12,417 nucleotides of DNA from a virus. Its lineage: Duplodnaviria > Heunggongvirae > Uroviricota > Caudoviricetes. Shown here piece by piece: positions 3,053 to 9,760 of this stretch. A program made the translations under genes and the position numbers. The stretch is taken from IMG/VR virus record IMGVR_UViG_2617270966_000008. One strand, 5' to 3'. The number at the start of each line of letters is the position of its first letter. Positions within the stretch are counted from its first letter, which is position 1. Under the pieces are notes generated by a model. The model searched no databases. It was not told where the DNA came from and saw only the letters and a program-made list of their open reading frames with translations.

Positions 3053-5449
3053 CTAAGATAACCTTGGTGGTTCGCCAATGCTTTTTAACAAGGAATTGTA
3101 TTGATGCGGATCTGACGCATAAATCTTGTCTAACACGTAGTTGGCTACCTTGGAAATTTCTGGAATCTCCACAGGTTTGAATCCGCGATCAGGAATTGAT
3201 TCGAGATGTGAAAACTCGTTGTTAAGTCTATTCACAAGAGCTATCGCTGTTGAATCCTCTTCGCCAAAGAATTTCTTGATCCGTTCAAAGGCATCGTTCT
3301 TGTCATCATGGTGCGGGAACTTAAAGAACAGAAATGCCTCAAGGAACTTGCGGAGGTTGTTACCGAATCCATAGTATGGTTCATGAGATTCATTCGCTCC
3401 AACTTGATTACGGCACTTGTAAATCTGATGAAACAGGTAGTTGAATTCAGTGATGTAGTCTCGCAAATATGAAGGCATCAGGGAAATCTGACTTGTCCCT
3501 CCATTTCTCTCAACGATTAAATGTTGGCATCCACCATGATTCCTTTCATTAGGAAGTGATATTTTCTTCAGATATTTCAAGAAATCTAGGTTGTGGGTGG
3601 ATATAAAAAGCTGCTTATAGCGATAGCTGTTTGTTCCATCTAAATTCTTAATGGGTTTCGCAATCAGGCTTTCAATCAAGCTGAACATGAAGAAAATGTG
3701 ATTTCCGTCAAGACTGGAAATCGGGTCATCTATATAAATGATCAGATCCTTACCTTTGCTTTCAGGCTCTTCCAACTTGGCCATGAAGTAGCAGAAAGCA
3801 ATCAGGCTGCATTCTCCTTCGCTCAAGTTGTAGGCTGATTTGCCATCTCTGGTGACTTCAAACTTAACCGAAGTATTCTCAACATTGTCTTTTGCTTCAA
3901 GTTCGATGCCGTCATGACCAAAAAAGTGGCTGAGCAACTCATTGACTCGCTCCGCGCCCTTGCGTTCATCCTTCTGCTGCCCCTGTAAACGGGTCACTTC
4001 GGTTTCTTGTTCAAAAATTTCAGCTTCAGTTTCGGTAAAGGCAGTGTTGGCTGTGTTAGCATCTGACTTAAGACTGGCAATACGGGCGAATTCATTATCG
4101 TAGGTGATGTCTGCGATAAAAGACGCCACATCGGTAAGCCGGAGAGATTCTCGTGCAGTGCTTTTATCGTTCTCCAGCGAAATTGTGCGGTCATTATTTT
4201 TGACGATCAGAGCATTGATGTCGCCCACACATTGCTGAATTGCTGTCGGATTATGAATATAGACAGGCATGAGAACCTGCTGAAAAATAGCGTTCTTTCT
4301 CTTATCCAACGCCGCCTGCAGAGCTTTGAGGTCCTGCATGTAGTCTTTCAGATGTTCAGAAAGTTCTATCTTGCTGTTTTCAAATAATATTTTCTCTTCT
4401 GCGTAGAATTTATCGCCAGTCAAAGTCAAGAAGTTAGGAATGGCTTGGATTTCGGTGGTGATAGAAGTCAGACATGAATCGATACTTGACTCCAGAGCCG
4501 AGGATTCCTTACTGAAGTGAGAGCCTAATACCTGCCAGATATCATGAGGAAGATTCTGACGACAGAATGCGCAAGTGTCCCGCTTATCTTTGTGCAGCGG
4601 TATACCTTCCTTCACCCACATCTGGAGAGCCGTCTCATTCAACAACTCCTGAATTGGCAGGGTAGGCTCAATCAATCTTAAAAGGAGTTCTTCAGCTTCT
4701 TTGCTTATTGATTCGATGTTGAGGTTTATCGATACGGTATCGTTAATATCAGGCAAGGCCTCTTGCTTCAAGAGATTGACCTTGGCTGCTTGTTCTTCGG
4801 TTGTCAGAGCCCTGAAGCCAGGTTTTTTGACTAAACCAATGTCTTTTTTGATGCTTTCTATGTTGTAGACAGCAGGGCCGTAGATGCGATTCTGTTTAAT
4901 CTTATTGTTAGCATGAGAACGAAGTTTGCCCTCTAGAGCATCAGACGCAGTTTTATGATTGTCTTTGGTTCGATCTCGCTCTTTCTTTTTAGCTTCAAGC
5001 TCATGTCGGAGACCCGCCTTCGATTCAACACTGCCTAACCTAGTTTGAATTGCGGTAATGGCATCTTCGATTTCTTTATTCTTTTCACCAACGATAGCAA
5101 ACGTCTTGATCTCGCCGTCGGTCTGATTGACCAAGAAGTTTAGGTTATCGCTCACAAAATCCCGGTTGTAGACGCGAACATCGTAGCCATGACCAGCAAG
5201 ACCTACCTGTGTCACATCACCTTTGTCACCACGAATAGTAAAATTTGGGTCCACGTAGTTATGTGGAATGCGCCCCGTTTCCAAAGCGCGGAAAATTCGT
5301 GAGAGTGTAGTTTTACCAGAGTAGTTCCGTCCGTAGAGGATGTTAAGCCTCTTGAAATTCTGGACATTGTTACCTGCATCCTTAAGGCTATTTTTCCAAC
5401 TGAGGTCCGTAAAACTACCGAAACTACCGATGTCAACCTGACTAAACAT
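3053..5449 (-). CDS. Rad50/SMC-like ABC ATPase with internal coiled coil, CxxC zinc hook and C-terminal effector domain; RloC/PrrC-like (AAA_13-type) putative anticodon nuclease / anti-phage protein
   Basis: Residue numbers follow the 800-aa track ORF. Walker A GRNYSGKTT (42-50); long K/E/L-rich region with C295-x2-C298; C-terminal ABC signature-like LSEGE, Walker B LIIYIDDP, D-loop SSLD, H-loop ISTHN; then a roughly 170-aa domain with RKFLE...FPHH and RNHGGCQH motifs. Probable start is the ATG at 5447-5449 (GGAAG RBS), two codons inside the track's GTG. Gene looks AT-richer than its neighbours by eye. Confidence 0.8.
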   Translation of the reverse strand: MFSQVDIGSFGSFTDLSWKNSLKDAGNNVQNFKRLNILYGRNYSGKTTLSRIFRALETGRIPHNYVDPNFTIRGDKGDVTQVGLAGHGYDVRVYNRDFVSDNLNFLVNQTDGEIKTFAIVGEKNKEIEDAITAIQTRLGSVESKAGLRHELEAKKKERDRTKDNHKTASDALEGKLRSHANNKIKQNRIYGPAVYNIESIKKDIGLVKKPGFRALTTEEQAAKVNLLKQEALPDINDTVSINLNIESISKEAEELLLRLIEPTLPIQELLNETALQMWVKEGIPLHKDKRDTCAFCRQNLPHDIWQVLGSHFSKESSALESSIDSCLTSITTEIQAIPNFLTLTGDKFYAEEKILFENSKIELSEHLKDYMQDLKALQAALDKRKNAIFQQVLMPVYIHNPTAIQQCVGDINALIVKNNDRTISLENDKSTARESLRLTDVASFIADITYDNEFARIASLKSDANTANTAFTETEAEIFEQETEVTRLQGQQKDERKGAERVNELLSHFFGHDGIELEAKDNVENTSVKFEVTRDGKSAYNLSEGECSLIAFCYFMAKLEEPESKGKDLIIYIDDPISSLDGNHIFFMFSLIESLIAKPIKNLDGTNSYRYKQLFISTHNLDFLKYLKKISLPNERNHGGCQHLIVERNGGTSQISLMPSYLRDYITEFNYLFHQIYKCRNQVGANESHEPYYGFGNNLRKFLEAFLFFKFPHHDDKNDAFERIKKFFGEEDSTAIALVNRLNNEFSHLESIPDRGFKPVEIPEISKVANYVLDKIYASDPHQYNSLLKSIGEPPRLS

Positions 5450-5468
5450 GAACACTTCCGTCGCGCTG

Positions 5469-5496
5469 GCTATAGATTGTCAATTTGCAATTGAAA
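5469..5496 (-). promoter_or_regulatory. candidate promoter for the RloC-like gene (minus strand: TTTCAA, 16-nt spacer, TATAGC)
   Basis: Hexamers read in the 89-nt gap upstream of the ATPase gene. Pattern match only. Confidence 0.3.
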
Positions 5497-5544
5497 CAGA
5501 TTGTTAACCCAGTCTACTCTGAGTTTAAGGAATGTTTAAATAGG

Positions 5545-5973
5545 TTATTGATACTTCAATAAATATCGAACATTTCCCTGATAAAAAGACAATATACGCT
5601 GCATAACTTCGCTTTTACGGCACTCACTACAAATTATATTATGATGTCTGTCGTAACGACGTATTTCTCCGTCAGCTAATGACCAGATAAGGTCTGGATC
5701 AACCGCAGCGGGTTTCTTCACCTTTGCCCTCGAGAGTTTTTTGCGGGCGTTTTGCCAGTCCTTACGGGCCTGTTCAGACGGGAATAACCCGTAACCAGAG
5801 TTGTATACATCGCCACTGGCAACCAGCTCTCTGGCAAGAGCGCTCATCAGATATCTTGTCGCACCTGTCTTGGCTTCCAGTTGCCGTAACGTCTCACGAC
5901 CGCTCTGGCGCACGAGTTCCACCACCTGCCCTTTAATTTTTTCCCGCTCTTCTTGTGTAAAAACTTTTGCCAC
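5545..5973 (-). CDS. hypothetical protein, 142 aa, possible HTH-like N-terminus and C-terminal Cys pair
   Basis: GTG start at 5971-5973 preceded by AAGGGGGA RBS. No family recognised. Lies between the O-like replication gene and the ATPase gene. Confidence 0.65.
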   Translation of the reverse strand: MAKVFTQEEREKIKGQVVELVRQSGRETLRQLEAKTGATRYLMSALARELVASGDVYNSGYGLFPSEQARKDWQNARKKLSRAKVKKPAAVDPDLIWSLADGEIRRYDRHHNIICSECRKSEVMQRILSFYQGNVRYLLKYQ

Positions 5974-8221: not shown

Positions 8222-8275
8222 TGTTAGCCATAACATACAAAATCACTTGACCAATATGTTAGTTATGACTAATCT
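8222..8275 (+). promoter_or_regulatory. candidate dicB-operon promoter (TTGACC, 17-nt spacer, TAATCT) overlapped by TGTTAG-type operator palindromes
   Basis: TGTTAGCCATAACA (8222-8235) and TTAGTTATGACTAA (8259-8272, inside the spacer) share half-sites with the dicA/dicC operators. -35 at 8247-8252, -10 at 8270-8275. Confidence 0.45.
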
Positions 8276-8352
8276 TGTTTACATCAACACACCGCACGGT
8301 GTTCTCAGCAAACAGTTCCGCCACCCCGGCGTTAAGGGGAAATGAGGTCAGC

Positions 8353-8509: not shown

Positions 8510-9085
8510 ATGGATTTCGACACAATCATGGAAAAGGCTTACGAAGAATACTTCGAAGGCCTTGCCGAAGGCGAAGAAGCTCTCAGCTTCAGTGAGTTTA
8601 AACAGGCACTCAGAATAAGAATGTGCTCTCACAATGACGCGGAGCACAAATATGAGAAGCAAAATCAGACCGCAGAAAATTTTGTTCTGGAACCCGGAGA
8701 AACGCTTTTCAAAATTCCCGTTACGTGCCCCATTTGCGGTTTTACATCAGAAGAACTTGACGACTCCTGTAACAATCAGGAAACAACCAAGTATGTCGAA
8801 GATGATACCGAGTGCGCACGAAGAACGATTATATCCACGAGTCCAAACTCCAGGACCAATAAATCTCACCTTGAGAGGGTAATTAATCCACTCCCCCAAA
8901 CCAATAAAAAAGATGCCGGAGGACAAAAAACCCAATGGAACAACGGGATATCTGTCAAAAAAAGACGTTCCATTAAAGACAAACAACGCAGCGCCAACAA
9001 CTGTAAGCGCTTTATACCAGTAATCAATTTTCATGTTCTTAAGCGGATTTATTGGTGGTTGCGACATTGCTTAATGAATCCTTAA
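8510..9085 (+). CDS. YdfB/YdfC-region ORF, continuous 191 codons here: acidic N-terminal part with CPICGF zinc-ribbon-like motif and a basic K/N-rich tail
   Basis: ATG at 8510 directly follows the ydfA stop (TGAtATG). Frame stays open to TAA at 9083-9085. From memory K-12 annotates separate ydfB (42 aa) and ydfC (72 aa) here, so the true extent is uncertain. Confidence 0.4.
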   Translation: MDFDTIMEKAYEEYFEGLAEGEEALSFSEFKQALRIRMCSHNDAEHKYEKQNQTAENFVLEPGETLFKIPVTCPICGFTSEELDDSCNNQETTKYVEDDTECARRTIISTSPNSRTNKSHLERVINPLPQTNKKDAGGQKTQWNNGISVKKRRSIKDKQRSANNCKRFIPVINFHVLKRIYWWLRHCLMNP

Positions 9086-9344
9086 AACTGTGGTGATTTT
9101 AAGGATACCACCTCGCCTGACGTGGTTAAAAGCAGGCACACAACACGAAAGCGCACGGCGAAGTTCGTCTCACTGTACGGTGTCGTTAAATTTAATTCGA
9201 CCGTGCGCTTCCGGTTGTGGCAACCCGCGAAATGGCGCGGCGGTAAGTATGGCGGGGGTATTCCTTCCCCGTTGAGGACACCGAGTTGTCAGGTTGACCA
9301 TACGCTTAAGTGACAACCCCGCTGCAACGCCCTCTGTTATCAAT

Positions 9345-9397
9345 TTTCTGGTGACGTTTGGCGGTATCAGTTTTACTCCGTGACTGCTCTGCCGCCG
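9345..9397 (+). ncRNA. dicF: DicF small regulatory RNA (ftsZ-targeting, Hfq-dependent) with its terminator hairpin
   Basis: TTTCTGGTGACGTTTGGCGGTATCAGTTTTACTCCGTGACTGCTCTGCCGCC followed by GTTTTT matches DicF as recalled. GGCGG/CCGCC stem plus U-run. Ends are approximate. Confidence 0.85.
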
Positions 9398-9571
9398 TTT
9401 TTAAAGTGAATTTTGTGATGCGGTGAATGCGGCTAAGCGCACGCGGAACAGTTAAAACCAAATACAGTGTTATGGGTGGATTCTCTGTATCCGGCGTTAA
9501 TTGTTAACTGGTTAACGTCACCTGGAGGCACTAGGCACTGCATCACAAAATTCATTGTTGAGGACGCGATA

Positions 9572-9760
9572 ATGAAAACGTTATTACCAAACGTTAATAC
9601 GTCTGAAGGTTGTTTTGAAATTGGTGTCACTATCAGTAACCCTGTATTTACTGAAGATGCCATTAACAAGAGAAAACAAGAACGGGAGCTATTAAATAAA
9701 ATATGCATTGTTTCAATGCTGGCTCGTTTACGTCTGATGCCAAAAGGATGTGCACAATGA
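9572..9760 (+). CDS. dicB: DicB cell-division inhibitor (MinC-dependent), 62 aa
   Basis: MKTLLPNVNTSEGCFEIGVTISNPVFTEDAINKRKQERELLNKICIVSMLARLRLMPKGCAQ; GAGGA RBS 6 nt upstream of the ATG. Confidence 0.9.
   Translation: MKTLLPNVNTSEGCFEIGVTISNPVFTEDAINKRKQERELLNKICIVSMLARLRLMPKGCAQ

Follow-up and report, generated by a model that had tools for sequence, protein, structure and literature searches.

The DNA analysed here (IMG/VR record IMGVR_UViG_2617270966_000008; hereafter the window, a 12.4-kb stretch whose positions serve as coordinates throughout) is, judging by its sequence, the Qin-type dicBF operon, in which the small RNA (sRNA) gene dicF precedes dicB. A 20-nt inverted repeat lies between these two genes. 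Our reading, to which we assign a probability of roughly 0.8, is that the arms of this repeat form the outer part of a helix (P1) that closes a conserved, pseudoknotted RNA domain of ∼130 nt, and that RNase III cuts the helix on both strands, dividing the operon transcript into three products. The window is ∼99% identical to K-12, and window coordinates equal K-12 MG1655 coordinates minus 1640037.

The closing helix and the enclosed RNA domain

An earlier note on this DNA, made from the sequence without database searches, had reported arms at 9406-9425 and 9536-9555 matching at 18 of 20 positions and had placed them between dicF and dicB, shortly upstream of the dicB ribosome-binding site (RBS). 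An independent count returned the same 18 of 20 Watson-Crick matches, and the location agrees with the Rfam match to DicF (9346-9397), the dicB start codon (9572) and a GAGGA Shine-Dalgarno sequence (9560-9564). An automated repeat search gave almost the same arms (9407-9425 and 9536-9554; 19 nt, 95% complementary, 110 nt apart). The two mismatches in the DNA are G9406:U9555 and G9422:U9539; when G:U is counted on the + strand all 20 positions pair, and the helix on that strand comprises 21 contiguous bp (9405-9425 with 9536-9556), including the two G:U pairs. Because the mismatches are G:U on the + strand but C:A on the − strand, the repeat is best understood as an RNA helix of the operon strand. 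An RNA of the minus strand was ruled out by the C:A mismatches, by a weaker antisense fold, and by covariance-model scores of 22–34 bits antisense versus 90–193 bits sense. No other inverted repeat with at least 18 of 20 matches and a loop of at most 200 nt occurs in the window, and none of 150 dinucleotide-preserving shuffles contained one, which rules out a chance repeat. Five of the 271 positions between 9330 and 9600 differ from MG1655; within the helix, position 9421 is C in the window and U in K-12, so that its pair with G9540 is C-G in one and U-G in the other and pairing is maintained.

The long duplex that the earlier note expected in the operon transcript was recovered by folding, as both the minimum free energy (MFE) and the centroid structures of the intercistronic region contain exactly the repeat helix, and it was borne out by covariation in related phages (see below). 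Fold z-scores were −7.6 for 9400-9560 and −5.9 for 9340-9600. The 21 contiguous bp are of the length expected of an RNase III substrate (about two helical turns, i.e. at least 20 bp of largely uninterrupted double-stranded RNA). The helix is further predicted to extend outward to 28–30 bp with one bulged base (G9557), through pairing of 9396-9404 with 9558-9566; these additional pairs are weak (A-U and G:U) and come from thermodynamic prediction.

The comparative evidence shows more than a bare duplex: the repeat forms the stem that closes a conserved and structured RNA domain of ∼130 nt, which the earlier note had overlooked. From 5' to 3' this domain consists of P1 (the repeat arms being its outer part), a linker of 3 nt, P2, P3 (whose distal hairpin varies), P4 and P5, together with a pseudoknot of 7 bp. 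Its parts are as follows:

9396-9404, + strand: 5' side of the predicted outer helix extension (terminator U-tract plus AA), from the MFE fold of 9340-9600; anchored count of 30 bp with one bulge
9405-9425, + strand: P1 left arm (5' strand, 21 bp), whose inner 9 bp (9417-9425 with 9536-9544) are paired in every aligned sequence (45 of 45)
9429-9444, + strand: P2 hairpin (GCGGC UAAGC GC A CGC), 100% paired, near-invariant and hence without covariation evidence
9445-9492, + strand: P3, with a conserved 3-bp base (9445-9447 with 9490-9492) and a hairpin variable in length and sequence
9449-9455, + strand: 5' strand of the pseudoknot (CAGUUAA), pairing with the P4 loop
9493-9519, + strand: P4 hairpin, 10 bp with loop GUUAACU; 9 of 10 pairs changed on both sides, 95% paired
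9504-9510, + strand: 3' strand of the pseudoknot (the P4 loop plus G9510)
9521-9535, + strand: P5 hairpin, 5 bp with an invariant AGGCA loop, abutting the 3' strand of P1; UA/GC covariation at one pair
9536-9556, + strand: P1 right arm (3' strand), with a mapped RNA 3' end at A9547 (implied cut 9547/9548)
9558-9566, + strand: 3' side of the outer helix extension, holding the dicB Shine-Dalgarno sequence GAGGA, from the fold and the anchored helix count

Support for this architecture was obtained from two alignments of relatives. In a MAFFT alignment of 40 representatives, 91.4% of the cells were paired versus 34–40% when the strands were slid, and 15 pairs had changed on both sides. The covariance-model alignment (45 sequences), which was fitted to the nested helices and is hence biased toward them, gave 93.4% versus 32–39%, with 26 pairs changed on both sides and none of 500 shuffles scoring as high. 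MAFFT alone mis-registers the outer arm of the Klebsiella-type copies and P4 of the copies termed type C, and this was remedied by anchored helix counting together with the covariance-model alignment. Independently of that model, RNAalifold run on the unfitted MAFFT alignment recovered P2, P5, the innermost 9 bp of P1 and a portion of the pseudoknot. The covariance model held no pseudoknot information, and the pseudoknot was nevertheless 98.4% paired versus 5–56% when slid, with both sides changed in 4 of its 7 pairs; three versions of it exist, wholly different in sequence yet each complementary (CAGUUAA/UUAACUG, AAGGUUG/CAACCUU and UGGUUAU/AUAACCA). The base of P3 covaries from GGA/UCC to GAC/GUC or GGC/GCC, while its distal part differs in length among relatives. 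The core alone folds at z = −4.2.

Neither coding nor a tRNA accounts for the domain. Two open reading frames (ORFs) overlap it (9467-9760 on the plus strand and 9433-9708 on the minus strand), and coding was ruled out as the cause of conservation since unrelated genes follow the domain in its relatives and the length shifts are not multiples of three. The first of these ORFs (97 codons, GTG at 9467) is an in-frame upstream extension of dicB that overlaps the 3' half of the RNA domain and starts within the variable P3 hairpin. ARAGORN found no tRNA gene in the window, an Rfam E-value scan of 9330-9620 returned no tRNA match, and the AGGCA loop of P5 is not a T-loop.

The closing helix is long in most subtypes, spanning 27–30 bp with one bulge in Qin copies, 28 bp with two bulges in Rac copies, 14–22 bp in the Klebsiella type, 21 bp in Citrobacter, 24 bp in Raoultella and 20 bp in C. 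braakii; in Enterobacter an internal loop divides it into 6 + 11 bp (from visual inspection; automated counting ended at 6 bp). In all of these apart from the Qin and Rac copies the long helix has been rebuilt from different sequence. One relative (L052) carries two double compensatory changes in the outer arm, and outer arms pair at −14.6 kcal/mol with their cognate partner versus −8.6 with a non-cognate one. We conclude that helix length is in itself a conserved feature. P1 is only 8–12 bp long in two subtypes, namely the copies on phage P1-like contigs and type C, the latter situated before a KilS-like sRNA. In L015, a type C contig, a non-homologous 25-nt inverted repeat (8231-8319; 84% complementary, 39-nt loop) reaches from the terminator U-tract of the KilS-like sRNA to just before the next gene, and looks like a positional analogue that solved the same problem independently.

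RNA ends in the two arms and the proposed processing

The helix, its covariation and the architecture were computed here; the RNase III dependence of a 72-nt DicF species and of spacer coverage, as well as an RNA 3' end at 9547, are taken from published work. The flanking features on which the mapping relies are:

9139-9219, + strand: imperfect hairpin upstream of dicF (inverted repeats I5 and I24)
9345-9397, + strand: dicF sRNA, 53-nt form (Rfam RF00039, 72.5 bits; K-12 annotation 1649382-1649434)
∼9360-9396, + strand: terminator hairpin of dicF, followed by a U-tract at 9398-9402
9560-9564, + strand: Shine-Dalgarno sequence of dicB (GAGGA)
9572-9760, + strand: dicB, 62 amino acids (PF05358 DicB, E = 1.9e-40; K-12 annotation)

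A DicF form of 72 nt has been attributed to RNase III (Faubladier et al. 1990, as cited in PMC5069750 and PMC9438474). Counted from the DicF 5' end at 9345, 72 nt lead to 9416, in the middle of the left arm, with a cut at ∼9415/9416 to 9416/9417; the window holds the same locus as the published K-12 site, with the 3' end of the 72-nt species inside the left arm. From this end and the geometry of a 2-nt 3' overhang, a cut in the right arm was forecast at 9546/9547, before published Term-seq data were consulted. Those data contain a 3' end at MG1655 1649584 (+), which is A9547 in the window, with the dicB start 25 nt farther downstream (Adams et al. 2021, PMC7815308, Supplementary files 1 and 3). 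The sequence reads ...GCATCACA up to this end and AAATTCATTG after it, the downstream side beginning AAATTC. The end was reported in two growth-condition tabs (∼1035 and 753 reads) and classed as orphan, with a Rho score of 0.95 ('No') and an intrinsic-terminator score of 1.2 against a threshold of 3 (PMC7815308). We likewise found no intrinsic terminator at the right arm and no terminator-like site in 9050-9700. The RNase III sites in the pnp and rnc leaders show up in the same way in the Adams table, and the text of that paper nowhere mentions dicB, DicF or RNase III (PMC7815308). A further site is available from Gordon et al. 2017 (Table S1, PMC5371410), who listed an rnc-dependent coverage site at MG1655 1649470 (window 9433), annotated 'dicF-dicB' and flagged as known, with 0 reads in wild type versus 26 in the rnc mutant.

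The suggestion in the earlier note that the duplex is processed by RNase III is therefore supported by the 72-nt DicF end at 9416, the rnc-dependent site at 9433 and the non-terminator 3' end at 9547. Position 9416 pairs with 9545, so that a 3' end at 9547 gives an overhang of 2–3 nt, within the 1-nt uncertainty of the 72-nt figure. Arithmetic on the two published ends consequently yields the staggered two-strand cut, with its 2-nt 3' overhang, that is expected of an RNase III substrate; the two ends fit a canonical RNase III double cut within that uncertainty, and we infer that the 9547 end is made by this enzyme.

In the model that we favor, transcripts reading through the DicF terminator would form the P1 duplex (21 bp, or 28–30 bp with one bulge), and RNase III would cut both strands, the left arm at ∼9415-9417 and the right arm at 9547/9548. 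The first product would be DicF with a 19-nt 3' extension, i.e. the published 72-nt form. The second would be the excised core RNA (∼9416-9547), the long stem having been trimmed to the universally conserved inner 9–10 bp of P1, and the third the dicB messenger RNA (mRNA) with a leader of ∼24 nt. The excised core may accumulate as a separate RNA, and the processing may affect DicB synthesis.

Several points weigh against this model. The 72-nt figure comes from secondary citations and carries an uncertainty of ∼1–2 nt. The 9547 end could stem from RNase E cutting within the A/U-rich sequence ACAAAAUUC, or from an exonuclease halted at the foot of a stable fold. The rnc-dependent call consists of 26 reads versus 0 at a coverage-based position (PMC5371410), and a 2023 re-study that confirms that RNase III as well as RNase E processes DicF locates just the upstream RNase III site (PMC10448788). 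In addition, type C and phage P1-like members have a P1 of 8–12 bp, and the fold of the core needs no stem of RNase III length. Since such short-P1 members exist, processing cannot be the sole role of the domain.

RNase III processing 3' of DicF has been known since 1990 and is textbook sRNA biogenesis, so that the finding as first framed, although supported, is essentially not new and explains nothing further. What is added is the definition of the helix on both strands, the cut in the second strand and the closure of an STnc100-like conserved domain; the 9547 end matching the predicted cut provides the first concrete model of the dicB-proximal cut and of the dicB mRNA 5' end. Unlike our model, the accounts of dicBF in the open literature on this site, as far as their accessible portions go, contain neither the duplex partner, nor the dicB-proximal cut, nor the enclosed domain (PMC5069750, PMC9438474, PMC10448788).

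A second RNase III site lies upstream of dicF. The 190-nt DicF species has a 5' end made by RNase III and dependent on rnc (PMC10448788). Counting back from 9397 (9397 − 190 + 1) places this site at ∼9208, in the right half of the imperfect long hairpin at 9139-9219 (CACAACACGAAAGCGCACGG ... CCGUGCGCUUCCGGUUGUG); because the 5' end falls within this hairpin, dicF is flanked by two RNase III-type helices. Between the two, the Term-seq data contain another, abundant orphan 3' end at 9331-9332 (K-12 1649368/1649369; ∼4400–5600 reads in three tabs; Adams et al. 2021, PMC7815308). DicF begins 13 nt downstream of it, and the end probably reflects trimming of the upstream fragment left when RNase E cuts to form DicF. 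The sequence leading up to it, GUGACAACCCCGCUGCAAC, is similar to the 3'-terminal part of a weak copy of the domain in L130, a phage P1-like contig (...CCCCCGCUGCAAC).

Relatives in other prophages and kinship to STnc100

The arm-to-arm stretch is found at ∼80–86% identity in phages that lack dicB. In Rac-type and Stx phages it was located ∼17–30 nt upstream of kilR, in P7 and D6 it precedes terB/tciA within the ban operon, and it is also present in Klebsiella phages. A motif scan of viral contigs resulted in 77 distinct variants, and when a single genome from each species was scanned, the element turned up in Escherichia, Shigella, Citrobacter, Klebsiella, Raoultella, Enterobacter and Pseudescherichia. 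Among E. coli genomes, 4,650 carry a match. The distance from the 3' motif to the gene that follows (the payload) is 35–69 nt. Payloads include DicB variants, KilR, TerB-like proteins (PF05099), a Rha/Ash-type protein of ∼280 amino acids (PF09669, PF10554) and several small proteins without a Pfam match; type C differs in that an sRNA, not an ORF, takes this place. This distribution fits a portable module placed before payloads in long phage transcripts. Exact motif matches also occurred in four metagenome-assembled genomes labelled Veillonella, Mycobacteriales, Nanosynbacter and Collinsella (contigs L153, L154, L158 and L159). An E. coli-type dicB or kilR follows in L153 and L158, and the 3' part of the element was not found in L154 and L159; most likely all four are mis-binned contigs.

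The phage P1-like contig L130 carries three copies on its minus strand (3475-3590, 4252-4438 and 5746-5848; 37, 143 and 33 bits with covariance model R1), interleaved with five tRNA genes. Its two weak copies retain P1, a UAAU linker and the P5 hairpin with the AGGCA loop, and show P5 in the versions GGUGG/CCACC and GGGGG/CCCCC.

K-12 itself holds a second copy, in Rac, between the sRNA KilS (b4833) and kilR (170.5 bits with model R1). The two loci are paralogous modules and organized alike: in Rac a DicF-like sRNA (KilS) ending in a U-tract, then the same domain, closed by a bulged helix of 28 bp, and then a gene for a cell-division inhibitor. They differ in that the Rac right arm has a 1-nt bulge, a different outer sequence and an unmasked Shine-Dalgarno sequence. 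In the minus-strand region 930-1203 of L133 (K-12 Rac), KilS looks like a DicF paralogue, with the same terminator region (UGGCGG.AUCAG...) and a different 5' part. The outermost P5 pair is broken in the cryptic Rac copy (CCUGG...CCAGA). An rnc-dependent site at 1418510 is listed for the kilS-kilR spacer and lies 8 nt upstream of the KilS 5' end (PMC5371410); given this position, it concerns an upstream hairpin and not the Rac closing helix. The Adams et al. Term-seq tables report no 3' end in the Rac right arm (PMC7815308). KilS was named by Bar et al. 2021, where DicF goes unmentioned (PMC8175672). A paper on OxyS and kilR likewise contains no description of the leader of kilR.

An Rfam scan at curated thresholds assigned no family to 9398-9571. 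Below threshold, the window matched RF02076 (STnc100) at 31.1–31.2 bits, the gathering score being 47 (E = 2.7e-5 locally, 1.1e-3 for the whole window); other subtypes scored 33–43 bits, and E across all subtypes ranged from 2.7e-5 to 1.6e-3. The alignment to the STnc100 model takes in the internal hairpins as well as P1 and the P5 region, and includes the motifs GGUGAAU and UCACCnGGAGGCACnnGGCAC, so that the architecture of the two agrees. As in STnc100, P1 closes several hairpins, GGUGAAU follows P1 and UCACCnGGAGGCACnnGGCACC stands before its 3' strand. Unlike in STnc100, the P2, P3 and P4 sequences differ, the element lacks a terminator of its own, and P1 is extended to RNase III length. 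The genomic setting differs as well: STnc100 and PasD, which has been proposed as its relative (bioRxiv 10.64898/2026.05.13.724894), are sRNAs encoded in the late region of prophages (Q, stx, holin/lysis), whereas the element and all relatives retrieved occupy early-left operons or the ban operon of P1, upstream of genes such as dicB, kilR and terB-like ones. On sequence and structure we therefore place the element as a sister clade of STnc100, below the membership threshold and in a different genomic setting.

The STnc100 and PasD papers mention neither dicF, dicB nor kil, and the conserved pseudoknotted domain appears to be undescribed, being unmentioned in the DicF, KilS and STnc100/PasD papers examined. 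Although below the curated Rfam threshold, it connects the two K-12 cell-division-inhibitor modules, dicF-dicB and kilS-kilR, with each other and with many prophages, and it bears on how a single transcript yields separate toxic prophage genes and their companion sRNAs.

Possible roles of the domain and further features of the locus

Helices of this kind are familiar from the stalks of the 16S and 23S ribosomal RNA (rRNA) precursors, from the T7 early mRNA sites and from the lambda N-leader site. By analogy with these, flanks ∼110 nt apart would pair over at least 20 bp and staggered cuts would split a polycistronic phage transcript into its functional RNAs; the Qin duplex also appears to overlap a ribosome-binding site, a trait that the lambda N leader shares. 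Unlike those sites, the helix encloses a pseudoknotted RNA of ∼130 nt, no sequence relationship exists, and relief of masking is not conserved in Rac. For the domain itself we consider four possibilities, in decreasing order of preference: nothing more than a processing cassette, a functional RNA released by excision, a translational gate and a cis-acting sensor.

RNase III stalks release 16S and 23S rRNA, and the helix might likewise serve mainly to free the ∼131-nt pseudoknotted core as a stable functional RNA, the separation of DicF from dicB being a by-product. We hold this only tentatively. The core is far more conserved than its flanks, contains a covarying pseudoknot and folds stably by itself; the mapped cuts leave the universal 9–10 bp of P1, and the 9547 end was recovered with ∼750–1035 Term-seq reads. 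The kinship to STnc100 and PasD, which are expressed prophage sRNAs, and the three L130 copies amid five tRNA genes point the same way. The absence of spacer reads in wild type, compared with 26 in the rnc mutant, instead suggests decay of the core, although library preparation may lose small RNAs, and the constant short distance to the payload gene suggests a role in cis. In its widest form this idea would make the repeat the stalk of an unrecognised early-operon RNA of the STnc100/PasD superfamily, excised by RNase III as ∼131 nt and functioning in trans or as a cis sensor for kil-type genes, which we rate at somewhat poorer than even odds.

Translational control, the other function proposed in the earlier note, finds partial support: masking of the Shine-Dalgarno sequence is predicted for the Qin copy and not for its Rac sister copy. 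In the predicted folds the dicB Shine-Dalgarno sequence has a probability of being unpaired of 0.006 (window) or 0.26 (K-12) in the full-length RNA, rising to 0.80 after the cut. The difference between window and K-12 stems from position 9397, where G in place of the K-12 C adds the pairs G9397-C9565 and C9396-G9566 and lowers the predicted accessibility from 0.26 to 0.006. The Rac Shine-Dalgarno sequence is already open (predicted at 0.65) and gains nothing from the cut. Masking is thus plausible at the Qin locus on these models, and was rejected as a conserved function of the family. A gate of the lambda N-leader kind, in which the extended helix hides the Shine-Dalgarno sequence and DicB synthesis is permitted once RNase III has cut or the helix has opened, would accord with the pairing of GAGGA with the terminator U-tract in the MFE fold, with the rise in accessibility after the cut, and with a helix end 5–15 nt from the start codon in all long-P1 copies. 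We nevertheless consider it rather unlikely, since the masking pairs are weak (A-U and G:U), masking varies with the variant (G9397 strengthens it), and Rac does not share it.

A cis-acting sensor, in which a P1-closed pseudoknotted junction beside the RBS would tune toxic early genes in a riboswitch-like or factor-binding manner, seems improbable. The architecture does resemble that of aptamers, with a multi-helix junction, a pseudoknot, invariant junction nucleotides and a variable peripheral hairpin, and the start codons of diverse small or toxic genes follow at a constant spacing. The payloads, however, are functionally unrelated and in type C consist of an sRNA, and no ligand, alternative expression-platform fold or covarying switch helix was found. 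We give almost no credence to a feature of the DNA or of chance (a protein-binding palindrome, a recombination joint or a coincidental repeat). The boundaries between dicB-type and kilR-type modules do fall at or after the right arm; against this stand the 0 of 150 shuffles, mismatches that are G:U on one strand, the compensatory changes, the strand-specific covariance-model scores and the RNA ends mapped in both arms.

Farther upstream, the leader ACCACCUCGCCUGA(C/U)GUGG(U/C)UAAAAGCAGGCACA is common to the window (9108-9144) and L015 (7970-8006). In L015 this leader is followed by a short-P1 domain copy of type C and then the KilS-like sRNA, and in the window by ∼200 unrelated nt and then dicF. 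Neither Rfam nor covariance model R1 detected a second domain copy upstream of dicF in the window. The shared leader with differing sequels suggests, from sequence comparison, replacement of a module upstream of the sRNA. Elsewhere in the window, a weak isrK-like match (2148-2229; 23 bits, E = 0.14) adjoins a strong match to the sok antitoxin RNA on the minus strand (2388-2562; Rfam RF01794, 117 bits), which indicates a toxin-antitoxin locus of the hok/sok type.

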